A stretch of DNA of 59,501 nucleotides from Promethearchaeota archaeon (GTDB lineage: Archaea; Asgardarchaeota; Lokiarchaeia; Sigyniarchaeales; SOKP01): assembly GCA_048938445.1 (NCBI GenBank), contig JBHLME010000008.1, forward strand, positions 1-59,501, given 5' to 3'. Of this stretch, positions 4,646-19,420 are shown piece after piece (position 1 is the stretch's first letter; every line of letters begins with the position of its first letter). The translations under genes were made by a program, and so were the position numbers. The notes under the pieces were generated by a model. It had not been told where the DNA came from. It ran no database searches and was given only the letters and a program-made list of their open reading frames with translations.

Positions 4646-6895
4646 TTATATTTCCATCAAATTGGGGATCGTAGAATCGTAGAGATCTTTCAATTTTTTC
4701 GTTTCAAGAGATAATTCAATACTCTTTAATCCTTTAATATTTATTTGTGGATCTTGAGTAATCTTACCAATTTTTTTTAGGAATACACCATATTTTTCAG
4801 CCATTTCCATTATTTGATCAATATCTTTTGGTTCTGACTCGATAATGAATCTTCCCGCAGATTCACTAAATAAATAAATATCATCTCTAAGATCATTGAT
4901 ATTACAATCTTTAAGGTCAAGTTCGGCACCAAATCTATTTTTAAAGCACATTTCAGCTATAGTTATAATAAATCCTCCTTTATTCACGTCGTGATTTGAT
5001 TTGACAAGTTTTTTACTGTATAATTCTAATAAAAAGTTCCATGTTGCTTTGATAATCTCTTCATCAATTTTTGGTGGAATTCCGCCCTCCATATCATAAA
5101 TTACTGAATGATATTCTGATCCTCCGAGTTCCGCCTTAGTTTCTCCAATGAGTAATATATCATTACCTTCTTTTTTAAAAGGGAGGGTTATAATATTTTC
5201 TACCCCTTCAATAATTCCTAAAATCATAATTATAGGTGTAGCTTTAATTGCCGTATTATTAACTTCATCTTCATTATAAAAGGACACATTTCCGCCTACA
5301 ATCGGTATCTTTAACGCCCTACAAGAATCATTCATTCCATCCACGGATTTAGAAAAATACCAATATGATTCTGGTTTTTCAGGATTTCCAAAATTGCAGC
5401 AATTAACCATTGCTAATGGTTTAGCTCCATTTGCTAACACGTTTCCACATACTTCAATTAACCCTCCTTTTGCGCCCTCATAAGGATTAAGAAAACAGTG
5501 CTTTGAATTCGTGCCAACACTTGCGGCAATAAACTTATTCGTACCTATTATTCTTAAAACACCAGAATCCCCTTCACCGCACTTGACAACGGATCTTACA
5601 CCAACTTCATGATCATATTGTCGATATACCCATTCTTTACTACAAATATTTTCAGAAGCGATTAATTTATATATTATTTCCTCAAGAGAAATGTCAGGCG
5701 CTGGAGTTTTTTGTGCGAGCAGTTTATCTAGAAATTCTGGACGCTTTTCTTCCCTAGGTATTGGAGGTGCATCAGATAATGCTGTTGATGGTAAATTGAC
5801 CACAAAATTATCCCCATCTTGTACTTTTAATACTTTTGATTCGTCCGTTCTTCCTATAACGGCATGTGACATCTCAAACTTCCTAAAAATCTTTAAAATT
5901 TCTTCCAATCCCTCAGGTTTTACTATGAATGCCATTCTCTCTTGAGATTCTGAAAGCATTACTTCAAAAGAATTCATTCCAGGTTCTCTTGTAAAAATTT
6001 TTGACATGTCAATTTGAGCTCCTGTACCACCGTCTCCTGTAAGTTCACTTAACGCGCATGACAATCCTCCCCCTCCTAAGTCCTTCAGTCCTCTCACGTG
6101 GCCTGTTTTTATTGCTTCAATTGTTGCTTCTATGATCATCTTTTTCGTGAAGGGATCACCAATTTGAACCGCAGGTCTATCTGCTTCGGACATTTCTGTT
6201 AATGTTCGAGAAGCAAAAGTGACCCCGTGTATTCCATCTCTTCCAGTAGATCCTCCCATCAGTATGACATAATCACCGGGATGATATGCCCTACTTGGAG
6301 CGTGTTTGAAATCTTCTATGGTACCCAATCCTATGCATGCTACATTTACCAAACAATTACTTTCAAAACTCTTATCAAATTCCACTTCTCCTCCAATGGT
6401 TGGGATTCCAGTACAATTTCCATAATCTGCAATACCTTTTACAACATATTTGAATAACCATTGTGAATGTGGATTATTTTTTAAAGTACCAAATCTTAGA
6501 GGATCTAATAAAGCAATCGGTCTAACACCCATGCATAAAATATCTCTAATAATTCCTCCAATACCAGTAGCGGCACCATGATAGGGTTCTATGGCTGATG
6601 GATGGTTATGTGATTCAATTCTAAATGCTAAACAATACCCATCTCCTATACCGATGACACCCGCGTCTTGTCCTGGTCCCGCCAATACGTAATCATAATT
6701 TTCTTCAGCATTTTCAAAAAATTTTAACTTAGGTCGTGAAGATTTATACGAACAATGTTCTGAATGCATTACATCAAACATTCCCCACTCAGTAATAGAG
6801 GGATTCCTTTTTAATAGATCTTTTATTTGTATGATTTCTTTATCCGTTAAATCTACGTTCAATTCATTACCATCGCTTTTTACTTTTGGCATCAT
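4646..6895 (-). CDS. purL: Phosphoribosylformylglycinamidine synthase subunit PurL
   Basis: SEHCSYKSS, ESHNHPSAIEPYHGAATGIGGIIRDI, LSESQERM, GGNVSFYNE. Confidence 0.97.
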   Translation of the reverse strand: MMPKVKSDGNELNVDLTDKEIIQIKDLLKRNPSITEWGMFDVMHSEHCSYKSSRPKLKFFENAEENYDYVLAGPGQDAGVIGIGDGYCLAFRIESHNHPSAIEPYHGAATGIGGIIRDILCMGVRPIALLDPLRFGTLKNNPHSQWLFKYVVKGIADYGNCTGIPTIGGEVEFDKSFESNCLVNVACIGLGTIEDFKHAPSRAYHPGDYVILMGGSTGRDGIHGVTFASRTLTEMSEADRPAVQIGDPFTKKMIIEATIEAIKTGHVRGLKDLGGGGLSCALSELTGDGGTGAQIDMSKIFTREPGMNSFEVMLSESQERMAFIVKPEGLEEILKIFRKFEMSHAVIGRTDESKVLKVQDGDNFVVNLPSTALSDAPPIPREEKRPEFLDKLLAQKTPAPDISLEEIIYKLIASENICSKEWVYRQYDHEVGVRSVVKCGEGDSGVLRIIGTNKFIAASVGTNSKHCFLNPYEGAKGGLIEVCGNVLANGAKPLAMVNCCNFGNPEKPESYWYFSKSVDGMNDSCRALKIPIVGGNVSFYNEDEVNNTAIKATPIIMILGIIEGVENIITLPFKKEGNDILLIGETKAELGGSEYHSVIYDMEGGIPPKIDEEIIKATWNFLLELYSKKLVKSNHDVNKGGFIITIAEMCFKNRFGAELDLKDCNINDLRDDIYLFSESAGRFIIESEPKDIDQIMEMAEKYGVFLKKIGKITQDPQINIKGLKSIELSLETKKLKDLYDSTIPNLMEI

Positions 6896-7602
6896 AAACC
6901 CCCCCGTTTTATGAATTCTATCATGCTTTCAAAAAATAGTTTACCATGAGTAGTTCCATTTGGACTCAAAATTGTTTCAGAAGCACGTTCAGGATGAGGC
7001 ATTAATCCTACACAATTTCTATCAAGATTGCAGACTCCCGCTATACTTCCAAGGGAACCATTTGGGTTATGTTCTTCAGTTATTTCTCCCGCCTCATTCG
7101 TATATCTAAAGACAATTTGATCATTATCTTCAAGTTCTTTTAGATTGTCAGTGAAATAACGTCCTTCTGCATGAGCGATCGGAATATCGAGTACTGAATT
7201 CATCTCCATTTTATTTGTAAAGGCTGTCTTTTTGTTTTCTACCTTAATATTAATCCATTTACAAATAAATTTGAGTGTGTCATTTCTTAATAAAGCACCG
7301 GGTAGAAATTGTGCTTCTGTTAAAATTTGGAATCCATTACATGTTCCAAGAATTGGCCTTCCATCTTTTAACATTACTCTTGCTTCATCAATTGCGGGGC
7401 TATGGGCTGCAATTATGCCTGCTCTTAAATAATCACCAAACGCAAATCCCCCTGGAAATACACACCCATCAAATTGAGATTCTTTGAAGTTATTATGCCA
7501 TATTAATTCCGTTTCAACATTCATTACATTATTGAGAACATGAATTATATCAAGATCGCAATTTGAACCTGGGAACTGGATGACAGCTATTTTGATAGTC
7601 AT
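6892..7602 (-). CDS. purQ: FGAM synthase glutaminase subunit PurQ
   Basis: FPGSNCD, PGGFAFGDYLRAG, GTCNGFQIL, MPHPER. Overlaps purL by 4 bp. Confidence 0.97.
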   Translation of the reverse strand: MTIKIAVIQFPGSNCDLDIIHVLNNVMNVETELIWHNNFKESQFDGCVFPGGFAFGDYLRAGIIAAHSPAIDEARVMLKDGRPILGTCNGFQILTEAQFLPGALLRNDTLKFICKWINIKVENKKTAFTNKMEMNSVLDIPIAHAEGRYFTDNLKELEDNDQIVFRYTNEAGEITEEHNPNGSLGSIAGVCNLDRNCVGLMPHPERASETILSPNGTTHGKLFFESMIEFIKRGGL

Positions 7603-7616
7603 GATTTTTATATTAA

Positions 7617-7889
7617 TTATTTTTTAGATACATTTAAAATGGTTAAATTCTGTGTTACTGGATTGAAGATACGAAGATCATTACACATTTTATCAACAAT
7701 TGTTCTTGCGTGATTTTCTTCATTCGCTTTGAGATAGATTCTTAAATATTGCCCTGATCTAACATTAGAAACCATTTCATATCCTTTTTTTGCTAATAGG
7801 TCCTTTTGAATAACAGATCCTACAGGATCTCTCGCTGCAGGTTTATTTTCAAGTACAATTTCTACAATCCATTCATTATCATTGCTCAT
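7617..7889 (-). CDS. purS: FGAM synthase subunit PurS
   Basis: DPVG and NPV motifs, about 90 aa, directly upstream of purQ. ATG 7889 is the likely start. Confidence 0.9.
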   Translation of the reverse strand: MSNDNEWIVEIVLENKPAARDPVGSVIQKDLLAKKGYEMVSNVRSGQYLRIYLKANEENHARTIVDKMCNDLRIFNPVTQNLTILNVSKK

Positions 7890-8094
7890 TTTTCCTGAAA
7901 CCACTTCCTAAATTAACTTAATGTAATATATATATTTTAAATCTCGATTACTACTTCAAGATACATAGAGTTTCATTGATAATAAAGTAAACGTTTAATA
8001 AGTTTTAATTTATTCCTATTAATTTGGCAATAACGTTTATTATGAGAAATTAAGAGAACATCATAAAGTGATTATACTTCTCAAATAAGGACAT

Positions 8095-8313
8095 TTAAAA
8101 ACTTATTCCAACTGTCATGTATGGAAGACTCGCAATTACAAGCATTAATATTGATAGAATTATGAATAACAAGCTATAACCTGTGAATTTTGGCAAATTT
8201 TTACCTAAACTTTTACTTCTATCTACTTTTGGGGACAAAACATCATATAACAAAGCAATTATGGATGCAACAAACAATCCAAAACTGAGTAAAAGGAAAA
8301 TAACATCAATCAT
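8095..8313 (-). CDS. Small membrane protein (2 TM)
   Basis: Two hydrophobic segments flanking a basic loop. Confidence 0.6.
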   Translation of the reverse strand: MIDVIFLLLSFGLFVASIIALLYDVLSPKVDRSKSLGKNLPKFTGYSLLFIILSILMLVIASLPYMTVGISF

Positions 8314-8359
8314 TATAAGAAAAATACTTCTATTATTTTATTAAAATCTTTCTATAATT

Positions 8360-9340
8360 TTAGAGGTATTTTGCTTCTTTCAAGTTTTTTAGAATTCTCT
8401 GCTTTACTACGCCTACTTCAGGTTTAAATTCCATTCCCGTTATTTTTTGATAACTTTTCATGTACCTTTTAGCTAATTCAATTTTTATGTCATCTGAAAT
8501 TGGAGGTATCTCTTGGTCAGGTTTAATATTGGGAAAAATATCAGGATATGTATTCATCAACCATCCTCTAAAAATTTCCTTATCTAAAATTTCAGGTTCT
8601 TCTTTTTTTTTGAATAATTCATCATAACTGTCAGCAAACCAAAACCTTGATGAATCTTGAGTATGTATCTCATCGATTATCATCAATTCTCCTTCTTTTA
8701 AACCCATTTCATATTTCGTATCTACCAAGATTAGACCATTCTTTTTACAAAAATTCTGACCATACTTAAATAATGTAATTGCTGTTTCTTCCATCTCTTC
8801 ATAGAGATCCTTATCTACTATCTTTTCATTTATAATTTGGTCCTTTGAAATATAGATGTCATGACCTGATTCTGCCTTTGTTGAGGGGGTCACTATAATG
8901 TCATCGAGTTTTTGATTCTTTATTAATCCTTTTGGTAATACCACTCCTGAAGTATGTTCTCCCTTTAAATAGTTTCGCCAAGCAGTTCCAGTGATATATG
9001 CCCTTACTATCATTTCAATCGGAATCGTATCGCATTGATGGACAACAGCAACATTGGGGTCGGGAACTTCAATGATATGATTCTTAACAATATTTTTTGT
9101 TTTTTCAAACCAAAAAGCGCTAACTTGATTTAGCATTTGTCCTTTAAATGGTATCGTGGTGATAACTCTATCAAAAGAGGATAATCTATCAGTTGCGATA
9201 ATAATTCGTTTATCATTCAAGATATAATTATCTCTAACCTTTCCTCTATACAATTTTGCATTTGGAATATCAAGATTTGTATCTTTTAAAGTATTATCAA
9301 ATTGCTGTTTAATTATTTCATCAATATTTTCAGCTATCAT
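8360..9340 (-). CDS. purC: SAICAR synthetase
   Basis: RGKVRDNY, TDRLSSFD, IPFKGQMLN, TPSTKAE, LVDTKYEMG, DEIHTQDSSRFW. Confidence 0.96.
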   Translation of the reverse strand: MIAENIDEIIKQQFDNTLKDTNLDIPNAKLYRGKVRDNYILNDKRIIIATDRLSSFDRVITTIPFKGQMLNQVSAFWFEKTKNIVKNHIIEVPDPNVAVVHQCDTIPIEMIVRAYITGTAWRNYLKGEHTSGVVLPKGLIKNQKLDDIIVTPSTKAESGHDIYISKDQIINEKIVDKDLYEEMEETAITLFKYGQNFCKKNGLILVDTKYEMGLKEGELMIIDEIHTQDSSRFWFADSYDELFKKKEEPEILDKEIFRGWLMNTYPDIFPNIKPDQEIPPISDDIKIELAKRYMKSYQKITGMEFKPEVGVVKQRILKNLKEAKYL

Positions 9341-9403
9341 GATTACTATAAATTATAAACCTAATAAAAACTGTTGTTATTAACTCGCAAGTAAAACTTA
9401 TGT

Positions 9404-9775
9404 TCATTTCTTAAAATAAATACCATTATTGAATTCAGAAATAGGATATTTTTTCTTATTTTTAAGCATTTTTTTAAGGAATGTCGATGTAAGATCTAGA
9501 TCCAAAGAATTAATTAAACTTATTAAATAAATGAAAACATCTGCGCTTTCATCAGCAATATTGTTTAATAATGTTTTGTCTTTCATTATATCTTCAATAT
9601 TATGTTCTTTGAATAGAAATAATTGAGAAAGCTCTCCTGCTTCACAATTTAATGCTTGAACTAAATTTTTTGGAGAATGATATTTTTTCCATCCACGCTC
9701 TTCCACAAAATTCTTAACTTGATTTTTAAAAAAAGAAATACATGTATTATTATCGTTTTTATCAATCATTATCAA
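9404..9775 (-). CDS. MazG-like nucleotide pyrophosphohydrolase (dCTP pyrophosphatase-like)
   Basis: FVEERGWKKYHSPKNL...EAGEL...DESADV...KNKKKYP. Confidence 0.88.
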   Translation of the reverse strand: MIMIDKNDNNTCISFFKNQVKNFVEERGWKKYHSPKNLVQALNCEAGELSQLFLFKEHNIEDIMKDKTLLNNIADESADVFIYLISLINSLDLDLTSTFLKKMLKNKKKYPISEFNNGIYFKK

Positions 9776-9974: not shown

Positions 9975-10823
9975 TTAATAACACTTGAATTGGTTTGTAG
10001 TATTTATAAAATTGCATATCAATTCATTCACTATTTCTTTCCGTTGGCTCGGAGCAAAATGGCCTGCCATATCAATTATTTCCAATTGAGAGTTTTTAAT
10101 TTTCTGATGTAAGTGTTCACTCATTACCTCTGGTGCGAAATTATCTAATCTTCCTCCTATTATTAAAGTAGGGCATTTAATTCCCGTAGGATCATATTCA
10201 TTAATTTCACTTATCATGGAAAAAATTTGCGATTCAATTTTCATTAATAATTCTTCTTTTGTTAATTTATATTCCTGTCTGTAATTCTTGAGTGCAGTCA
10301 CGATATAAGGAATGATTTTATCCAATATCTCTTCGATAGAATTTGCGAGAACTTCCAAGATGTTCATGCGGATAAAATATGGTAATAAATTATAAAATAT
10401 ATTACGAATTACATTATCTATCATTATGTAACCAGAATTCAATAATATGAGAAATTTTACCTCATCGGGATGTTTCATGGCAAAATATTGAGCTATCATC
10501 CCACCTACCAAAGAATGACCAATAATACCATATTTTTCAACAACTCCTAAATGATTTAATAAGTCTTCCAAGTCTCTAATTATCTCATGTCTTATGTTTT
10601 TTTCAAGATTCAATTGATCAGGATGGTCGCTTTTACCATGACCTAAAGCATCAAAAGCAATGATGCGATATCGCTCGCTAAGCATTTTGATCTGTGCTTT
10701 AAAAAAGGATACTGAAGATGCAAAGCCATGGATTAAAATAATTGTTCCCTCGTTATCTTCTCTATCTCCATTAATATCAGCATAATAGAGATTATAACCA
10801 TCTTGATTATTAAAATAAGGCAT
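9975..10823 (-). CDS. Alpha/beta hydrolase
   Basis: LIHGF, DALGHGKSD, nucleophile GHSLVGG, PTLIIGGRLD, AGHF. Likely start MPYF at 10823. Confidence 0.88.
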   Translation of the reverse strand: MPYFNNQDGYNLYYADINGDREDNEGTIILIHGFASSVSFFKAQIKMLSERYRIIAFDALGHGKSDHPDQLNLEKNIRHEIIRDLEDLLNHLGVVEKYGIIGHSLVGGMIAQYFAMKHPDEVKFLILLNSGYIMIDNVIRNIFYNLLPYFIRMNILEVLANSIEEILDKIIPYIVTALKNYRQEYKLTKEELLMKIESQIFSMISEINEYDPTGIKCPTLIIGGRLDNFAPEVMSEHLHQKIKNSQLEIIDMAGHFAPSQRKEIVNELICNFINTTNQFKCY

Positions 10824-10997
10824 TAATTTCTGAATTATCAACAATTTAAATATAATTTTTGAAATATTAGATGCGTAATATATTTTACTAGTCTTTATAT
10901 AAGAGAGTTTTTCATTAAAAATGACTATTAAAAAATTTTTATTTTTTAATAAAAAGAGAAGAATTATAAAAATGTTAGAATAAATATGTTATTAGTA

Positions 10998-12536
10998 TTA
11001 AAGATTCTCGTAATTCAAAGACCGATTAATGATATCTTTCCAATATTCATATTTTCTTGTTCTTGTTTCAGCGCTCATTATAGGCGTGTAAGTTTTATCT
11101 GTTTTTATAATATTCATTAAATCTTCTTGAGAACTCCAAAATCCTGTTTCTAATCCTGCTATGAAAGCAGCACCCAATGCAGTTGTTTCTGGGTTTTGAG
11201 AATGTTCAATCTTCTTACCTAAAATATCACTTAAAAACTGAAGGATAAATTTATTCTGTGAAACCCCTCCATCTGCTTTTATTTTTTCTACTTTTATTTT
11301 TGTATCTTTTATTATCCCATCTACAAAATCTTTAATTCTAAAACAAATTCCTTCTAACACTGCTCTTACAATATGTTCTTTTTTAGTTGTAAGGTTTACA
11401 CCAAATAAGTTTCCTCGAGCAGTAGAATCAAAGTAAGGATATGAAATTCCACTTGAAAAAGTTGGAAGAAAATATACTCCTTCAGTAGATTCTACACTTA
11501 AAGCCATTTCTTCTGTTTCAGAAGGATTTTTGAATAGTTCTAATTCATTTTGGATCCAATCAATAATATTTCCAGAATTATGAGATAATCCTTCTAACAT
11601 ATAAGTGAGCTCTCCATCTATTTTCCAAGCAATTAAGGGATATAATCTTCTTTTTGAAGCAAATGGTGTATTGCCTGTATTTAAATCTACGGCACTCCCC
11701 GTTCCATTTGTAACTTTCATATCTCCAAAATTGAAACACCCTTGTCCGAATAAGGATGATTGTTGGTCTGCAATCACGCATTTTATTGGTATGTTTCCCT
11801 CTCCAAACAAACTTGTATATCCATAATCATCTTTAGTTTCTTTGATTTCAGGTAAATAATGCGGATGAATTCCAAATATCTTTAATAAAAAACTCCATTT
11901 TACTGTAAATGGATCTAACATACCTGTAGCTGAGGCGTTTGAAAAGTCTGTAGCGTGAATTTTTCTTCCAGTAAGATTCCATAATATCCAAGAATCAATT
12001 TGACCCCATATTATTGAAGTATTAGGATCTTTTACCTTAACTTTTAAATTTGGATTATTTTCTAAAAAATAAGCTGTTCTTATAGAAGCAAAATCAGAAG
12101 AAAATCGAAGTTGTGAAGTTACAAGCATTTTGGTACTTCCAAATACTCGCAAGATTTTTCCAATCGCTCTAAGGAGCCTAATGCTTAATTTATTAGTCAT
12201 TTTTATAGCAAATGCCGCTGCTCGTTTATCTTGCCAAGTTATTATATTCGAATAAAGCTCTCCCGTATCTTTATCCCAAAATAAAAATGATGCTCTCTGC
12301 GTGCATATAGCAATTGAATTTATATCACTTGCTTTTAAATTATTTGAATTGATTACTTCTTCAATCACTTCCTTACTCATTTCCCAAATTTCCATTGGAT
12401 CTTGTTCTACTTGTCCAGGAACTTCCATTATATAACGAGGCCTTCTCCTCGCTTGAGCATGAATATTTCCTTGTTTATCAAACAATAATCCTTTAATATT
12501 GGTTGTACCAATATCTAACGATAATACATAAGACAT
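10998..12536 (-). CDS. Glycerol kinase family (FGGY), GK5-like
   Basis: LDIGTT, TQRA, ITWQDKR, ATDFSNASATG, ADQQSSLFG, YPLIAWKI, ADGGVSQN, ETTALGAA. Confidence 0.9.
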   Translation of the reverse strand: MSYVLSLDIGTTNIKGLLFDKQGNIHAQARRRPRYIMEVPGQVEQDPMEIWEMSKEVIEEVINSNNLKASDINSIAICTQRASFLFWDKDTGELYSNIITWQDKRAAAFAIKMTNKLSIRLLRAIGKILRVFGSTKMLVTSQLRFSSDFASIRTAYFLENNPNLKVKVKDPNTSIIWGQIDSWILWNLTGRKIHATDFSNASATGMLDPFTVKWSFLLKIFGIHPHYLPEIKETKDDYGYTSLFGEGNIPIKCVIADQQSSLFGQGCFNFGDMKVTNGTGSAVDLNTGNTPFASKRRLYPLIAWKIDGELTYMLEGLSHNSGNIIDWIQNELELFKNPSETEEMALSVESTEGVYFLPTFSSGISYPYFDSTARGNLFGVNLTTKKEHIVRAVLEGICFRIKDFVDGIIKDTKIKVEKIKADGGVSQNKFILQFLSDILGKKIEHSQNPETTALGAAFIAGLETGFWSSQEDLMNIIKTDKTYTPIMSAETRTRKYEYWKDIINRSLNYENL

Positions 12537-12638
12537 TTTTAGATTTATTGATGATTTTATTTTAATAATATTTATAAAAAATTGTTTAAATAGATTTTGT
12601 AAAAAAAACTTAGATGAGTAGATTATTAAAAAGATTTT

Positions 12639-14945
12639 TTATAGTATTTTTTTTTGTCTTTCATTAGGTGTTATAGGTTGAAAAACTTTTTTATTAATTA
12701 ACTTTAGGATTGTTTTAAAATTTCTATATTTCCACTCGTTCTCTGGAATTAGAAATAGGATATAAAAATGTGGTGTTGTTTTTATAATGTTAGTTGCTTT
12801 TTGAATCATCTTTCTTTCTGCTTTTTTTAATTCTTCGATATTTCTGTAAACAATTTTATGTGGATAAATTAGAGAAATATGTAAGTGTTTTTCTATCAAG
12901 TTATCTATTCCTTTGAAATTTTTTAATTCACCAGTAAAATTTGTAAAATATTCACCATACTCACGATCAATATCATAAGATAGCTTTTCTATAGAATTTA
13001 GGATATATTTAGACGGATTTTGTTTCATTATAAGGATTATCCTGAAGCTTTTAAACTCTGACATTAAGATTTTTGAATCTTGATATTCCAATTTAATTGA
13101 TTGAGATCGGTTCTCCGAATCCGTTAACGCAATTTCAAACTTGCTTATAGCATCTAAATATCCCGAAATGAGCATTGAATCTTGTTTTCCCTTTCCTATT
13201 TTTTCTTCATAAATATTCAAACCAGAATTCTTTTCAGTAATCATGAAATACTTTATATTCAAGATATCAGTAACCGTATTTAACAAGCTCCTTTTCTTTT
13301 CATCATAATGATTCTTGGTGAATTTTGCAGTTTGATAAGTTGATATGCTTATAATTGAAATTATGGCAATAATAATCAATACATTTATAATCATCTGTGG
13401 ATCTATCGTGAATGGAACAAAAACAGTGAATTCTTGGGAGGTAAATCCTGCATCGGTATTGTTATTCCAATATATATAGAGGTTCCATATGCCTGGTTCT
13501 GTTTTACTTGGAATTAAATGGTTAAAAACATAATCTCCTAAAAAATTTTCTGTCTCATTCCTGTATTCTTCATATCCCAAACTATCAACCAAAATAACTG
13601 TTATATCACCCGGTGGAGGGTATAATGTAAATCTTAAACTCTGACCTGCTTCAAGATTGAGTAACGCAGATGGAAAATCTAGCAGCAAATCTATTTTCAG
13701 AGAATTAGCAGTTATTCTCCAGTTTGTTATTCCCTCATTAATAGTATTATTTGAGAGAGTGATTATTTTGTTAATTTCATTCAGAATGGAAGGTGTGGTA
13801 ATATTTACTCCCTCTTTATAAATAATGATATTAAACCAATTGAAATAAGAAAAGTTTAACTCAATATGATAATAATTATAACTATTTTTATTTGTACTAA
13901 ATTCAATATTCCAAGAATTATCAAAAGACTCTTGAACTAAAATTGTAGATTCTAATGTGGATATTCTTTTTAGAGAAATAGAATAATCAATTGTAAAATT
14001 TAATATTATTGATCGATTATCTTTAACCTGGATTTCTAAAAGATTAGATATTAACATATTATTACATTGAAAAGATACATTTCCCCCCCCTAATTGGTTT
14101 GTTATTTTATAATTTTTACCATTAAATATAGCACTCATGTTTATTTCTTCAGGATTATAAGTCTTATCCACTTTTTGTACTAATTTATGTAATAATGTCT
14201 GATTTTCAATTACTGTCCAATCCGCTGGTGGTTGCGGTTCATACCCACCATGATGTAGATTTGGAGTTAAAGGTTCTTGCGCTCCATTATGATGCCAATC
14301 CAGAATATAACCATCTGAAGGAGAATAAGATCTTTCAGTTCCATTTATGACCAATGCATAATTTCCTATCGGAAGTGTAATTGGATTAGTAGAGAAATCT
14401 TGCAAATACCATCCCGAGTCTGAAGACATATTTAGATCAATTGATCCCCATATAGTACTGCTTGGTTTAAAAGTACCGATATTATATCCTTTAATTTGAA
14501 AAGTTAAATCATTGATTGAAGCACCTAAATAAGTATTACCATAAATATATACTCCATATATCGTCGTTTCTTCAGTAATGTTAAGTTGAACATTTAAAGC
14601 AACTTGGCTATTAGGGAGACCAAAATAATACAGAGTTTCAGGAGGACCTTGTTGGTCTTCAACCGTTTTAATTTCTTTTTCTATCCTAATATTAGTAAAG
14701 TTTAATTCAACATTAGTAACATTCCAACCTGATGAGGGTAGCAAAATATCTATTGAAGAAGTATTTTCAATTTTACCTTGACATTTTGAAGATTCTTTCA
14801 TTGGTAAGGCATTAGTTTTTATTGATAAAGAACCTCCATTTGATGCTGCTCGAGAAAAATCTATTCTATTAAAAAAATTTATCATAAATAGAGAAGTAAA
14901 TATCCAAAAAATGACTGTAACTTTAATGAGATTTGATTTTTTCAT
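12639..14945 (-). CDS. Single-pass membrane protein: large ectodomain, TM, cytoplasmic longin-like domain
   Basis: N-terminal signal-like helix, about 480 aa beta-rich region with many N-x-S/T sequons, TM (MIINVLIIIAIISIISI), then SGLNIYE..DSMLISGYLDAISKF..LEY..ILM..RIILIM. Confidence 0.7.
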   Translation of the reverse strand: MKKSNLIKVTVIFWIFTSLFMINFFNRIDFSRAASNGGSLSIKTNALPMKESSKCQGKIENTSSIDILLPSSGWNVTNVELNFTNIRIEKEIKTVEDQQGPPETLYYFGLPNSQVALNVQLNITEETTIYGVYIYGNTYLGASINDLTFQIKGYNIGTFKPSSTIWGSIDLNMSSDSGWYLQDFSTNPITLPIGNYALVINGTERSYSPSDGYILDWHHNGAQEPLTPNLHHGGYEPQPPADWTVIENQTLLHKLVQKVDKTYNPEEINMSAIFNGKNYKITNQLGGGNVSFQCNNMLISNLLEIQVKDNRSIILNFTIDYSISLKRISTLESTILVQESFDNSWNIEFSTNKNSYNYYHIELNFSYFNWFNIIIYKEGVNITTPSILNEINKIITLSNNTINEGITNWRITANSLKIDLLLDFPSALLNLEAGQSLRFTLYPPPGDITVILVDSLGYEEYRNETENFLGDYVFNHLIPSKTEPGIWNLYIYWNNNTDAGFTSQEFTVFVPFTIDPQMIINVLIIIAIISIISISTYQTAKFTKNHYDEKKRSLLNTVTDILNIKYFMITEKNSGLNIYEEKIGKGKQDSMLISGYLDAISKFEIALTDSENRSQSIKLEYQDSKILMSEFKSFRIILIMKQNPSKYILNSIEKLSYDIDREYGEYFTNFTGELKNFKGIDNLIEKHLHISLIYPHKIVYRNIEELKKAERKMIQKATNIIKTTPHFYILFLIPENEWKYRNFKTILKLINKKVFQPITPNERQKKIL

Positions 14946-15056
14946 GCTATACTGATATTTATATATTCTTATTTTTAAATATTAACCCCTAAAACATATA
15001 AACGTAATTGTTCTATTTTATAAAATTTTTTATTTATTAAGAAATTTGGGAAAAAA

Positions 15057-16331
15057 TTAGATATATCTTGACAATAATTCTGAAATATCGAGTATTTTAA
15101 TATTATTGCTATCTTTATTGGATATACCATATGATAATCCTAATTCACATAAGGGACAAGCAGAAATGATAATATGGGCACCTGTATTCTTTAATTCTTG
15201 AATTCTATTTGATGCTTCTTTTAATGCAATTTCCTTATCTGCCCAATGTAACGTTCCACTCCACCCACAACAATGAGTATTTTCTCTATTGTGAATTGGT
15301 TCTAAAACATCAATTCCAGATATCTTATCACACAGTTTTCTTATTGAGGTTGAATCATTTTGATTTCTTGCAAGATGACAGGGATCATGTATCGTAACTT
15401 TATTGAACTCATTGGGTAAGGACGTTTTAAGCTCAATCTTTTTCTCTTCAAGTAACATATTAATGTATTTTACGATATGAAATATTTCTACATTCATATC
15501 AATTCCAAGCATTTCATATTTTTTTGTGAGTGTTTCAACACATCCTGGGCAATCTGATACAACAATTTTCGCACCTGTTTTTTCTATTAATTTTTTGTTT
15601 TTCTCAGCTAAATCTTTAGCGACATCAAGTTCCCTAATGCTGAATGCTGGTGCTCCACAGCATGTTTTGGTTTCTAGGTTAGTAGAAAATTTAATACCAG
15701 CTTTATTTAAAATTTTAATATATCCCTTTATCATTTCAGGTACTTTCATAGATTGACATCCGATATAGTAATAGATCTCATCATTTCCATTTGTTTCTAT
15801 GTTTTCAATACCTTTTTCGTGATGAGTTTTAAAAATGTTGACTTCTTCAATAGTTTCAGTTCTTTTAAGTTTATCAATTTGCATTTTACAATACTCAGGC
15901 ATCAAACCTTTTGCGTTGAGATCATCTCTGACACTTTCAAGTAAAGAAACGACTGAAAATTCAAAAGGGCACCATACTTTACAAGTCTCTTCATTTGAAC
16001 ACATATAAATTAAATCAATAAAATCTTTATTTTCTTCTTTTGTAGGATCAATCTTTCCTATAGAAAGAAAATATCCGATTCGAGACTTGTATGCTGGACT
16101 CATCGTTTCCTTTTGGGCTGCTTGTAGGGAACCACAGTCAAATCTGCACATGTTTGGACAAAGCATGCAGTTTGCAAGATTTTTAACATCCGCTTTATAA
16201 TCTCCTTCTGGAAAAAAGTTCTTATTTTTTGAGGCAGCATTTTTTAATAATATAGCTTTTATTTTTCTATCTGCTTTTTCAAGTAATGAAACCATCCATG
16301 GATAATTTTTTAACGTGTCAAATATAGACAT
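15057..16331 (-). CDS. Fe-S oxidoreductase, GlpC/HdrD-like (ferredoxin motifs plus two CCG domains)
   Basis: CMLCPNMCRFDC; YIGC..CCG..CPGC; HDPCHLAR..CCG..ACPLC. Confidence 0.88.
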   Translation of the reverse strand: MSIFDTLKNYPWMVSLLEKADRKIKAILLKNAASKNKNFFPEGDYKADVKNLANCMLCPNMCRFDCGSLQAAQKETMSPAYKSRIGYFLSIGKIDPTKEENKDFIDLIYMCSNEETCKVWCPFEFSVVSLLESVRDDLNAKGLMPEYCKMQIDKLKRTETIEEVNIFKTHHEKGIENIETNGNDEIYYYIGCQSMKVPEMIKGYIKILNKAGIKFSTNLETKTCCGAPAFSIRELDVAKDLAEKNKKLIEKTGAKIVVSDCPGCVETLTKKYEMLGIDMNVEIFHIVKYINMLLEEKKIELKTSLPNEFNKVTIHDPCHLARNQNDSTSIRKLCDKISGIDVLEPIHNRENTHCCGWSGTLHWADKEIALKEASNRIQELKNTGAHIIISACPLCELGLSYGISNKDSNNIKILDISELLSRYI

Positions 16332-17819
16332 TTATTCTTCACTCTCCATTGTTTTCCAAGTCTCTATGTATATTTTTCCAGGATTTAAGATATTATTTGG
16401 ATCTAAAATTTTTTTTATTTCTCGTAGAGTTTGAATCCCTTTAGTACCCCATTCTTTCTCCATCCAATGAGAACGATTTATACCTACACCATGATGATGA
16501 CCAAATGATCCACCTATATCTAAGACTGCCTTTACTGTAGCATTCCAGCACATTTGATAAAATTCAAATTCAGATGTACCTTTTGGAGGAACTCCTCCAA
16601 AGGTAAAATAATATCCAACACCATTTGGATAAAAATGTGAAATATGCGCTGAGATGAGGAGATTTCCCATTATTTTACTGGTAGAATCCATTACGGCTTG
16701 ATATAACTCTGCAGCTTTTTCCCACATTACTGCCACTTCAATTGTATCCGCGATAATTTTATATGGAGGGAACATTGAAGTTTCTTTGACCGTAAATCTT
16801 GTTTCAAACCAATGTTCCACCGGTTTTTCACCACAATCGATTCCGGAATTTTTTTCACACACTTTTCTAGTAATTTTTTCTTCTAAATCCACGAGATCAG
16901 CATTTCCTTCGCATACAAAAATAGTCATTACCTTATCCCTTGCTTTTTCTTCATATTCAAAATGACGATTTGTTTCAATAGCATCATAAATCCTTATAAC
17001 CGCTGGAAAGATCATTTCTCTTAAAATTAACCTACACGCCTCTAAAGAATCCTCTAACGTAGGAAATGCGTAAGAAATTAACGCTCTTTTTTCTGGATAT
17101 GGCCAAATTTTTAAGGTTGCTTTTGTTACGATTCCAAGTGTTCCTTCTCCACCTATAAAAAATTTATCAAGTTGTGGGCCAGTTGAAGCTCGAACAATTG
17201 GTTTAAAATTAATTATTTCTCCTTGAGGAAGTACCACTTCCATTCCCAATACAATATCTTCAATTTTTCCATACTTGGTTGAGAATTGTCCTGCTGCTCT
17301 ATGAGCAATCCAACCTCCCACTGAGGAAGTATATATAGATTGAGGGATATGTCCTCCAGTATATCCTTTAGAATTTAAAATTCGTTCAAGATTCATTCCA
17401 TTAATTCCTGTTTCAACAGTTACAGTTAAGTTCTCATCATTAATTTCAATTAATTTAGAAAATTTTTTCATATCAAGTATAATTCCACCATAAATAGGTA
17501 TCGCGCCTCCAACAACTCCCGAACCTTCTGCGAAGGGAATAACGGGGATAGTCTCTTTATTTGCTAACTTTAAGATTCTTGAAATTTGCTCTAGATTTTC
17601 AGGCCATGTGATAAAATCTGGTTTTCCCGCAATTTTTCCTTCTATCATCCAATTTAACGTAATTAATGTTGCATCGCTAGTATAAGCAAATAAATCTATC
17701 TCATTATCACTCACGTTGTCTTTTCCGATAATATTTATTAATTTTTTTAAAATATCTTTTTTATTTTTAATTTGACGTCTATTTTCTTTATATATTAATT
17801 CAAATTCTTCAAAATCCAT
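16332..17819 (-). CDS. FAD-binding oxidoreductase, alkyl-DHAP synthase (ADPS/AGPS)-like
   Basis: GSGVVGG, GHIPQS..SSVGGWIAHRAAGQFSTKYGKIED, GGEGTLGIVT, HISHFY, HHHGVG, LDPNNILNPG. Confidence 0.85.
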   Translation of the reverse strand: MDFEEFELIYKENRRQIKNKKDILKKLINIIGKDNVSDNEIDLFAYTSDATLITLNWMIEGKIAGKPDFITWPENLEQISRILKLANKETIPVIPFAEGSGVVGGAIPIYGGIILDMKKFSKLIEINDENLTVTVETGINGMNLERILNSKGYTGGHIPQSIYTSSVGGWIAHRAAGQFSTKYGKIEDIVLGMEVVLPQGEIINFKPIVRASTGPQLDKFFIGGEGTLGIVTKATLKIWPYPEKRALISYAFPTLEDSLEACRLILREMIFPAVIRIYDAIETNRHFEYEEKARDKVMTIFVCEGNADLVDLEEKITRKVCEKNSGIDCGEKPVEHWFETRFTVKETSMFPPYKIIADTIEVAVMWEKAAELYQAVMDSTSKIMGNLLISAHISHFYPNGVGYYFTFGGVPPKGTSEFEFYQMCWNATVKAVLDIGGSFGHHHGVGINRSHWMEKEWGTKGIQTLREIKKILDPNNILNPGKIYIETWKTMESEE

Positions 17820-17932: not shown

Positions 17933-19420
17933 TTAATAAATTGTCTCTCCTGTAGTCTTATCCACTTTAAAATGTCTCAAACGTGGAGATGTTTTGGTTA
18001 TTCCTTCACTATTTAATATTTTTTCTACTAAATTATGAGGAAATAAATATTTTGCTAAATGAACTATAGTTTGCTTAGTTTCAATGCAATTTAAAAGCTT
18101 TAATGACTCTACTGAATAAAATAATTCACTTATCAAATCAAAATTAGTATCTTTTGAAAAGTCTAAGAATTCTAAATTTCTATAAATTCTTGAAACAATG
18201 TTATCCAACAAGTCATAATCTTTTAAATTATCAATTGTATTTCTCATATAATTGATAAATATTACATAATATGTTGATTCTGAAGTAATAAAACCGTCTC
18301 TATATTGTTTTATTCCTTCAGATGTTATTCGCAACTCGATTTCATCCAAAATCGCTTGAATTTTTTGTCTTTCGATTTTTTTGTAAACATTTAGAAGAGT
18401 ATATATTTTTATAATAACAATTAATTGTGATGTCTCAAAATTTTGAAAATAATTAGATTCTAATATCTTTTCATCCTCCTTAATAATTTGTTTGATATTT
18501 TTTTCATCTAACCATAATTGAGCCATTTCTGTTGATTTAAGATAATAATATACTCTATCAGTTGCTTCAAAAAGAGGTGCCTCAAATTCATCGATATTTT
18601 CTTCATATAAATCGAGTAAAAATCGCTTCACTTTATGATAATCAATTTCAACATTTAGATGTTTGGCCAAATAAAGTCCACAAAAATAAAGATCAGGATT
18701 TTTTAATGTAATTAGGGGTACGGATGCTAACCACTCATCAATATTATTTTTAAGATAGTTTTTTATATGAGAAAAGTCAAATTGGGTTGTGATATTAAAA
18801 AAGTCAAGAATACGAAAAATTGAATAAATTAATTGAAGTTTATCTCTGGGATTTTCTAAATCCTCTAAACTTTCAATTTTCCTTTTATTATCTCTAAATT
18901 TTTCTATGATTTTTTCTTGAATGTATATATATTTTCTTAGATTTTCCACATTTTCAGGTGATTTTTGAAGTAACTTTTTTAAATTTCTCAATTCTAATAT
19001 AAATTCTGTTGGAAAAAAACCTTTATATTTTAAATTTAAAATTATTAATGCCGCTTTAGTTTCTACGAGATAATCAATTATTTGTTCTAAAAATAATTCA
19101 TATACAATCGGAGCAAATTTTTTTGAATAAATGTCTAAAGATGAGGTAATCTCATTAAGAAATGTCACTTCTTTTTCAATGAATTTTACTTGAAAATAAT
19201 TATCAATCTTTTCTTTTTTAAAACCGATATGCATGAGTTCGATTTTTAATACTGAAAGAATTTCTTCATTAATTTTACTATATGTTAAGTCACTAAGTCC
19301 AGTTTTTTGAAGATAATCATTTATTTTCTCCAAAAAATAAATATCAATTTGGTTATAAAATTCTTCAATAGAAGATTCGAAATATAAATTGAGTATGTTG
19401 AATAAACCCTGGAAAATCAT
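17933..19420 (-). CDS. Hypothetical helical protein
   Basis: 495-aa ORF. The C-terminal half has helical repeats with a weak prenyltransferase-like segment (GIKQYRDGFITSESTYY). Confidence 0.7.
   Translation of the reverse strand: MIFQGLFNILNLYFESSIEEFYNQIDIYFLEKINDYLQKTGLSDLTYSKINEEILSVLKIELMHIGFKKEKIDNYFQVKFIEKEVTFLNEITSSLDIYSKKFAPIVYELFLEQIIDYLVETKAALIILNLKYKGFFPTEFILELRNLKKLLQKSPENVENLRKYIYIQEKIIEKFRDNKRKIESLEDLENPRDKLQLIYSIFRILDFFNITTQFDFSHIKNYLKNNIDEWLASVPLITLKNPDLYFCGLYLAKHLNVEIDYHKVKRFLLDLYEENIDEFEAPLFEATDRVYYYLKSTEMAQLWLDEKNIKQIIKEDEKILESNYFQNFETSQLIVIIKIYTLLNVYKKIERQKIQAILDEIELRITSEGIKQYRDGFITSESTYYVIFINYMRNTIDNLKDYDLLDNIVSRIYRNLEFLDFSKDTNFDLISELFYSVESLKLLNCIETKQTIVHLAKYLFPHNLVEKILNSEGITKTSPRLRHFKVDKTTGETIY

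Follow-up and report, generated by a model that had tools for sequence, protein, structure and literature searches.

An AGPS-like flavoprotein paired with an iron–sulfur protein in an Asgard archaeon: a candidate dehydrogenase of glycerol-backbone metabolism

A gene group on the minus strand of contig JBHLME010000008.1 (assembly GCA_048938445.1), from a Promethearchaeota archaeon, encodes a flavoprotein, here termed P0001, that resembles alkyldihydroxyacetonephosphate synthase (AGPS, also called ADPS), an enzyme of eukaryotic ether-lipid synthesis. The window examined was the whole stretch of 59,501 nucleotides, and its Asgard origin (phylum Promethearchaeota) was backed by the organisms from which its closest homologues are named as coming. 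The question raised by this locus is whether P0001 builds ether lipids or performs another reaction on a glycerol-type backbone. We propose with moderate confidence that P0001 and the iron–sulfur protein P0002, encoded immediately downstream, constitute a two-subunit dehydrogenase for a phosphorylated three-carbon polyol or ketol, which would operate in glycerol-backbone scavenging; the substrate class is suggested by the active-site residues and the gene neighbors. Ether-lipid synthesis by the module is not supported.

P0001 is AGPS-like, and not GlcD- or D-lactate dehydrogenase (D-LDH)-like. Its best sequence matches in the Protein Data Bank (PDB) were Dictyostelium ADPS (2uuu; E = 7e-60, 206 bits) and guinea-pig AGPS (4bby; 4.6e-58), as against 1.5e-46 for mouse D-LDH, which bears out the "ADPS-like" label given in a preliminary description of this DNA. 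The AGPS catalytic positions were read via the PDB mutant chains 4bca and 4bc7 (Y578F and R419H mutants). R276, Y404, and H441–H443 of P0001 align opposite R419, Y578, and H615–617 of the guinea-pig enzyme. This R/Y/HHH signature was invariant across 30 relatives, and its positions co-varied in an alignment of 102 relatives, with R in 76, Y in 74, and HHH in 66. The D-LDH-type relatives (about 17–18) read E/H/GEH at P0001 positions 276, 404, and 441–443; in D-LDH and D2HGDH, we take these residues to coordinate the metal. HHHG was present in all 119 close homologues and in 135 of the 150 best cluster representatives, none of which contained GEHG. Furthermore, the R/Y/HHH proteins formed one clade in a FastTree phylogeny rooted on the GEH group, which comprised 101 sequences after one short paralogue was dropped and did not include eukaryotic or myxobacterial AGPS; none of the latter occurred among the 120 and 150 homologues listed. 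A GEH-type archaeal control matched LctD, glycolate oxidase, and LDHD, with zero AGPS matches at 1e-40. The best NCBIfam match of P0001 was the GlcD equivalog, at 223.8 bits, far under its cut-off of 567.9. The AF2 model of P0001 (pLDDT 91) adopted a VAO/PCMH fold, for which the top Foldseek matches were AGPS structures (4bby and 5ae3; TMq 0.85–0.87, TMt 0.75–0.81). mLDHD was ranked close behind (TMq 0.81), so that the fold alone discriminates little. No transmembrane segment was predicted in P0001 by hydropathy.

The TAA stop codon of the P0001 gene is followed with zero gap by the ATG start codon of the P0002 gene (junction sequence GAATAAATGTCT). Five co-oriented open reading frames (ORFs) span positions 9975–17819, and a sixth co-oriented ORF lies upstream at 17933–19420, beyond the group as it had first been delimited. 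The six genes, all on the minus strand, are as follows.

16332–17819, minus strand: P0001, AGPS-like flavin adenine dinucleotide (FAD) flavoprotein of 495 residues; Pfam FAD_binding_4 (9.9e-39) and FAD-oxidase_C (6.9e-34).
15057–16331, minus strand: P0002, iron–sulfur protein of 424 residues; Pfam CCG, two copies (5.8e-32), and Fer4_8.
12639–14945, minus strand: P0003, single-pass membrane protein of 768 residues; no Pfam or NCBIfam family.
10998–12536, minus strand: P0004, GlpK-like FGGY kinase of 512 residues; Pfam FGGY_N (1.5e-43) and FGGY_C (1.1e-32).
9975–10844, minus strand: P0005, alpha/beta hydrolase of 289 residues with a TTG start; Pfam Abhydrolase_1 (2.4e-29).
17933–19420, minus strand: P0006, protein of 495 residues; no Pfam or NCBIfam family.

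P0002 is a soluble, GlpC/GlcF/HdrD/TfrB-like protein that carries N-terminal cysteine motifs of the 2×[4Fe-4S] type together with two CCG domains. Its NCBIfam scores were all under the cut-offs (TfrB, 151 bits; LdhH, 129; GlpC, 86.7 with a cut-off of 278), which places P0002 in the GlpC/HdrD-type superfamily but not as GlpC itself. The cysteines of both cluster types were invariant or nearly so in 17 P0002 orthologues. A CCG-type gene was located within four ORFs of the flavoprotein gene in all 23 Asgard loci. In 18 of the 20 loci that were fetched, a CCG2-type gene lies directly beside it, and in L020 and L024 (locus numbers are ours) a GlpC-type CCG gene adjoins it instead. One natural flavoprotein–CCG fusion was also found (P0131). 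From the gene abutment, the adjacency, and this fusion, we infer that P0001 and P0002 probably form a physical complex. The chemistry of AGPS is redox-neutral and needs no net electron transfer. The constant iron–sulfur partner in the Asgard loci hence points to a net electron transfer for which AGPS has no need.

The 119 listed homologues of P0001 were 68–83% identical to it and derived from Promethearchaeota, Loki-, Thor-, Hermod-, Hod-, Heimdall-, and Odinarchaeota bins; several of them carry the JGI label "alkyldihydroxyacetonephosphate synthase". Of the 151 genomes sampled from the phylum, 82 had a match at E ≤ 1e-100, including 46 of 72 high-quality genomes. Synteny was evaluated on the 20 fetched Asgard loci, which were spread over the families with a P0001 match. 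The gene order in the window's family is P0006–flavoprotein–CCG–kinase–hydrolase. An FGGY kinase was present in 15 of the 20 loci, being missing from L015, L016, L017, L020, and L026. An operon composed of kinase–GlpA–GlpB–GlpC–flavoprotein–CCG was found in L021, L022, L024, L027, and L028, while that of L020 consists of GlpA–GlpB–GlpC–flavoprotein, without the kinase and the second CCG gene. The flavoprotein/CCG pair of L018 and L025 lies beside DAO+BFD, Pyr_redox_2, and DUF1667 genes; such a set was purified from Pyrococcus furiosus as FngABC, described as an electron-bifurcating glycerol-3-phosphate (G3P) oxidoreductase (PMC13689815). The GlpABC and FngABC G3P dehydrogenases are presented in that article as catabolic enzymes of anaerobes acting on phosphorylated glycerol-type substrates (PMC13689815). 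GlpA/FngA is absent from the operon of the window; elsewhere in the same genome, contig C17 carries an FngABC-type set and contig C242 a GlpD-like gene.

Since the arrangement recurs in related and distant genomes, it is not due to chance. The co-oriented module with abutting flavoprotein and iron–sulfur genes, as first described, is confirmed by the adjoining stop and start codons and by the recurrence of the order in other genomes. The synteny check across Asgard genomes that had been suggested also turned out positively, for the CCG partner and the FGGY kinase alike. A grouping with GlcD/LdhD and an unconserved kinase linkage had been named as the outcome that would speak against the first proposal; we found instead that the flavoprotein groups with AGPS and keeps an FGGY kinase in most of the fetched Asgard loci. 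The gene context agrees better with the earlier remark on GlpC-like electron carriers in G3P oxidation than with ether-lipid synthesis. As a separate observation, a radical-SAM gene (~372 residues) directly follows the CCG gene in L027 (6709–7824, minus strand) and L028 (6735–7859, minus strand), both from one Asgard family.

The kinase in this module was compared with glycerol kinase. P0004 is approximately 40% identical over its full length to the solved bacterial GlpKs, and its scores fall below the NCBIfam GlpK cut-offs (443.2 against 498; 435.9 against 590.35). The glycerol contacts are presumably those at R83, E84, Y135, D245, and F270 of E. coli GlpK. When P0004 was aligned with S. aureus GlpK (3g25), the substrate Arg was kept, as was the catalytic Asp-Gln; the Glu beside the Arg was replaced by Ala, the Tyr by Phe, and the Phe by Ala. 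Where GlpK has the motif QRE, every linked Asgard kinase, whichever its type, has QRA, QRS, or QRG, as have the bacterial GlpK-like (FGGY_A) neighbors; P0004 has QRA. The Asgard GlpK-like kinases, including P0004, also contain a hydrophobic/amphipathic insertion of approximately 40 residues after the W-Q-D motif, located beside the pocket. A search with the insertion region of P0004 detected this insertion only in 10 close Asgard homologues. The second FGGY kinase type, of 487 residues (as in L010), takes the place of P0004 in sister genomes and is about 24% identical to it; its best NCBIfam matches were XylB or AI-2 kinase, below cut-off. Judging from these substitutions and the insertion, P0004 is a non-canonical GlpK-like FGGY kinase. 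An earlier study of Lokiarchaeota assigned most "glpK" homologues to carbohydrate kinases (PMC6737245).

The subfamily of P0001 is large beyond Asgard archaea, comprising 1827 cluster representatives at E ≤ 1e-30. One genome per species was surveyed; 80 loci were returned, six without a centre ORF were left out, and 72 non-Asgard loci were used. Within four ORFs of the 45 R/Y/HHH-type flavoprotein genes, we found GlpA/GlpD-like genes at 25 loci, an FGGY kinase at 4, and a DAGK_cat/YegS lipid kinase at 16, the DAGK_cat neighbors being confirmed by Pfam in seven loci. At least one G3P dehydrogenase (G3PDH)-like gene or kinase lay within this distance in 31 of the 45 R/Y/HHH-type loci versus none of the 17 GEH-type loci. 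A CCG gene was nearby in 8 of these 17. HHH-type flavoproteins were also found in fused form: P0201 includes a PfkB kinase and P0264 a HAD phosphatase. Many HHH-type forms of 800–1000 residues (P0130 and similar) contain a second FAD_binding_4 stretch. A small subgroup of the clade reads DHH or EHH (L037, L045, L047, and L052) and is accompanied by KduI/IolB, class II aldolase, fucose-isomerase-like, and FGGY genes, or alternatively by a MIP channel, SDR, and Fe-ADH genes; it probably belongs to a separate sugar or polyol pathway.

The R/Y/HHH residues are the dihydroxyacetone phosphate (DHAP)-handling residues of AGPS and include no metal triad. Together with the iron–sulfur partner and the kinase and G3PDH neighbors, they argue for a dehydrogenase acting on a phosphorylated three-carbon compound. 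A small phosphorylated substrate is supported by the two FGGY types that occupy the same slot, by the PfkB and HAD fusions, and by the frequency of FGGY kinases in the Asgard loci. The following sequence of events is hence speculated. The hydrolase P0005 would release a glycerol-type backbone, which the non-canonical FGGY kinase would then phosphorylate. The flavoprotein P0001 would take two electrons from the phosphorylated product, or donate them if the reaction runs in the other direction. The electrons would pass through the two [4Fe-4S] clusters and the CCG clusters of P0002, and from there presumably to a further acceptor. The module would accordingly be placed in glycerol-backbone scavenging or catabolism, beside or together with GlpABC/FngABC and outside ether-lipid biosynthesis.

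Several observations weigh against this dehydrogenase. The catalytic residues of P0001 are those of a non-redox enzyme, and the linked kinases depart from canonical glycerol kinases. Where an Asgard operon already holds GlpABC or FngABC, a second G3P dehydrogenase would be redundant, so that the substrate may not be sn-G3P; a DAO-type G3PDH homologue occurs in 123 of the 151 phylum genomes, that of the window included. A separate CCG gene was absent within four ORFs in 44 of the 45 non-Asgard R/Y/HHH loci. Only 1 of the 36 forms longer than 700 residues is a CCG fusion (P0131), most others having the second FAD_binding_4 stretch. These two counts indicate that the iron–sulfur partner is not required throughout the subfamily. 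Many Asgard loci came from one family and many bacterial loci were actinobacterial, and such kin are not independent of one another. No characterised member of the P0001 subfamily was found in the literature searched. We also considered the flavoprotein/CCG pair as a general replacement for G3PDH and rejected it in view of the DAO-type homologues just mentioned.

The alternative that survives best, although we consider it unlikely, is that P0001 performs covalent-flavin chemistry of the AGPS type on a C1-O-substituted DHAP, building ether lipids or cleaving them without oxygen. The kinase would act on a 1-O-alkyl- or 1-O-acyl-glycerol, a G3PDH-type enzyme would oxidise C2, and P0001 would exchange or remove the C1 substituent, with the iron–sulfur protein merely keeping the flavin oxidised. 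It draws on the retained Arg, Tyr, and HHH and on AGPS as the top structural match. The altered glycerol pocket of the kinases (Glu to Ala, Ser, or Gly, and in P0004 also Phe to Ala and Tyr to Phe), the hydrophobic/amphipathic insertion beside the pocket in the Asgard GlpK-like kinases, and the alpha/beta hydrolase conserved next to the kinase would likewise suit this reading. So would the DAGK_cat/YegS and GlpD/GlpA-like neighbors of the non-Asgard loci, as well as two genes elsewhere in the genome, one for a double PlsC-type acyltransferase and one for an NAD_binding_4 reductase. FGGY kinases, however, are known for soluble substrates, and the constant iron–sulfur partner argues for net redox chemistry.

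Moreover, P0001 differs from AGPS in its architecture. Residues 24–290 and 294–483 of P0001 aligned to residues 95–363 and 390–583 of Dictyostelium ADPS, and residues 55–302 and 301–478 to residues 194–441 and 468–652 of guinea-pig AGPS. The N-terminal domain of AGPS (approximately the first 70 residues in Dictyostelium and 140 in guinea pig) and an insertion of about 26 residues are thus absent from P0001, in line with a TMt of only 0.75–0.81. In AGPS, the N-terminal helical domain and the insertion shape the lipid tunnel. Long bacterial members of the clade cover both parts that P0001 lacks, and the score against AGPS varied from 206 bits for P0001 and 238 for a second Asgard form to 301 for a Streptomyces form and 427 for an Acidobacteriaceae form. 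In the tree, the long forms (536–600 residues) were separated from forms of approximately 480 residues, to which all Asgard proteins belong. No fatty-acyl reductase or DHAP acyltransferase linked to P0001 was found by a Pfam scan of the window; the candidate genes are located on other contigs, and the reductase is without the FAR C-terminal domain. In what it reports on this pathway, a preprint found the phylogenetic signal of AGPS too small and no evidence for the plasmalogen pathway in Archaea (10.1101/2025.10.10.681575). By its alignments and neighbors, P0001 is not an AGPS orthologue but belongs to a sister subfamily, which keeps the AGPS catalytic residues and differs in architecture, partner, and context. 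The preliminary description had envisaged a pathway to scavenge or build non-archaeal lipids. The building of ether lipids finds no support in view of the iron–sulfur partner, the missing N-terminal domain and insertion, the missing FAR/GNPAT link, the low AGPS score, and the operons shared with catabolic G3P dehydrogenases in other Asgard lineages; a lipid flavour is still compatible with the data.

A bolder version, which we hold to be quite improbable, would turn the entire module into a route for glycerol lipids of the ether (or ester) kind that needs no O2. The kinase, its glycerol pocket opened and the hydrophobic insertion in place, would phosphorylate a 1-O-substituted glycerol, a G3PDH-type step would yield the substituted DHAP, P0001 would cleave or exchange the C1–O bond by the covalent-flavin chemistry of AGPS, and the iron–sulfur protein would handle the flavin electrons. 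If true, Asgard archaea would have a pathway for bacterial/eukaryotic-type G3P ether lipids with a relative of AGPS, the ether-lipid enzyme of eukaryotes, at its core.

A specific form of the dehydrogenase proposal, to which we assign a small chance, is that the P0001–P0002 pair is specific for sn-glycerol-1-phosphate (G1P), the enantiomer of archaea. It would then complement GlpABC/FngABC, which are specific for sn-G3P, and glycerophosphate of either hand, whether it stems from lipid debris or is released when the cell turns over its own lipids, would reach DHAP. Such a specificity would explain why the pair shares operons with a complete GlpABC or FngABC and why nearly all pair-carrying genomes have a DAO-type G3PDH; the active site also suits a phosphorylated triose. 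Against it stands that the kinase is the closest functional neighbor in the window's family, and GlpK-type kinases make sn-G3P, not G1P. The subfamily is also common in Actinobacteria, where the supply of G1P is less obvious. On the other side, marine bacteria have been reported to take up G1P, in a paper whose subject is not a catabolic G1P dehydrogenase (PMC12718374). An ordinary dehydrogenase of D-lactate, glycolate, or another 2-hydroxyacid (GlcD/GlcF-type), standing beside a sugar kinase by chance, is very improbable: the two-gene architecture, the best NCBIfam match to GlcD, the TMq of mLDHD, and about seven other GlcD-like and CCG pairs in the genome speak for it, but the GlcD score is far under the cut-off, R/Y/HHH replaces E/H/GEH in a monophyletic group, the GEH-type archaeal control gave no AGPS match at 1e-40, and G3PDH-like genes or kinases lie near none of the 17 GEH-type genes, against 31 of the 45 of R/Y/HHH type.

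The remaining genes of the module were also inspected. P0005 is a generic esterase/lipase-type protein whose NCBIfam matches were all far below the cut-offs, and its place behind the kinase is kept within the family of the window (L009, L010, L011, L013, L014, and L030). Homologues of P0006 (55–60% identity) are located directly upstream of the module in four of the six closest loci (L009, L010, L011, and L014). A weak Atlas lead for P0006, below the tool's bar, was an alpha/alpha-toroid fold of the prenyltransferase/terpene-cyclase-like kind, with no family named. P0003 is the only one of the six proteins with hydrophobic segments of transmembrane length (hydropathy; residues 4–25 and 507–541). 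Its gene lies between the iron–sulfur and kinase genes in the window only and is missing at that position in the six closest loci, L009–L014. P0003 is hence not part of the conserved module; the "receptor-like" gene formerly noted inside the group does encode a single-pass membrane protein, but its position is not shared. The nearest Atlas clusters of P0003 were three unnamed Promethearchaeota families of approximately 730–765 residues, pointing to an expanded family that is specific to Asgard archaea. The cytoplasmic C-terminal part of P0003 bore a weak resemblance to V4R-domain models, below the tool's bar.

Outside the module, MazG-like, purC, purS, purQ, and purL-like genes are encoded at 4646–9775 (minus strand), 3' of the hydrolase gene; their order is kept in L009–L011, L013, and L014, with no evident functional link to the module. 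A GlmS-type gene lies upstream of the module on the opposite strand. The approximately seven further pairs of a GlcD-like gene and a nearby CCG gene are distributed over contigs C17, C37, C56, C92, C95, C159, and C187 of the genome. Several of these GlcD-like paralogues have neither the GEH nor the HHH signature and read YWM, NYR, and others. The acyltransferase gene on contig C68 (locus L110; 439–2142, plus strand) encodes a protein of 567 residues with two PlsC-type domains and lies beside a DUF2229/HGD-D gene and a gene for a 474-residue Ras/Roc-family GTPase; this double-PlsC family had a match in none of four archaeal control genomes. The reductase gene on contig C99 (locus L109; 6920–8455, plus strand) encodes a protein of 511 residues with a full NAD_binding_4 domain of the male-sterility type at residues 154–386, and adjoins an MCP-signal gene and an Hsp90 gene.

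P0001 is among the better-conserved enzymes of Lokiarchaeia-type Asgard archaea, and its subfamily, in bacteria as in Asgard archaea, is associated with G3P-dehydrogenase-type enzymes and with kinases from three families. To know what it acts on would close a gap in the anaerobic metabolism of glycerol or lipid backbones, and could reveal the chemistry ancestral to AGPS. The database label "alkyldihydroxyacetonephosphate synthase" feeds claims on ether lipids of LUCA, the last universal common ancestor, and on the lipid divide; for instance, a reconstruction of LUCA lists this name among the recovered enzymes of ether and ester lipid synthesis (PMC11383801). Since the P0001 subfamily is a sister of AGPS with another architecture, partner, and context, the AGPS label is no evidence for ether-lipid synthesis, and caution is advised in its use.

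Among known systems, both FAD/CCG dehydrogenases and AGPS have been described already; what is new here is an uncharacterised variant, in which a site of the AGPS type occurs together with a CCG partner in a kinase/G3PDH neighborhood. AGPS (EC 2.5.1.26; 2uuu and 4bby) shares with P0001 its fold and the catalytic Arg, Tyr, and His-His-His residues, at approximately 29% identity. The FAR/GNPAT context and the iron–sulfur partner separate the two cases, as P0001 has no FAR/GNPAT neighbors and always has the iron–sulfur protein. Canonical GlpK has an intact glycerol pocket without the insertion, whereas the pocket of P0004 is altered and the insertion is present. The GlcDEF glycolate oxidase and the FAD/CCG D-LDHs, for which we take GlcDEF, the Desulfovibrio-type D-LDH, and E. 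coli YdiJ (as a fused form) to be the comparators, pair a VAO flavoprotein with a 2×[4Fe-4S]/two-CCG protein in the same manner as P0001 and P0002. These pairs have the E/H/GEH site and a lactate or glycolate context, in contrast to the R/Y/HHH site and kinase/G3PDH context of P0001 and P0002. GlpC of GlpABC has the same domain architecture as P0002. The catalytic subunits of GlpABC and FngABC belong to the DAO family, whose fold is unrelated to that of the VAO-family P0001; these enzymes share operons with the P0001–P0002 pair in several Asgard lineages.

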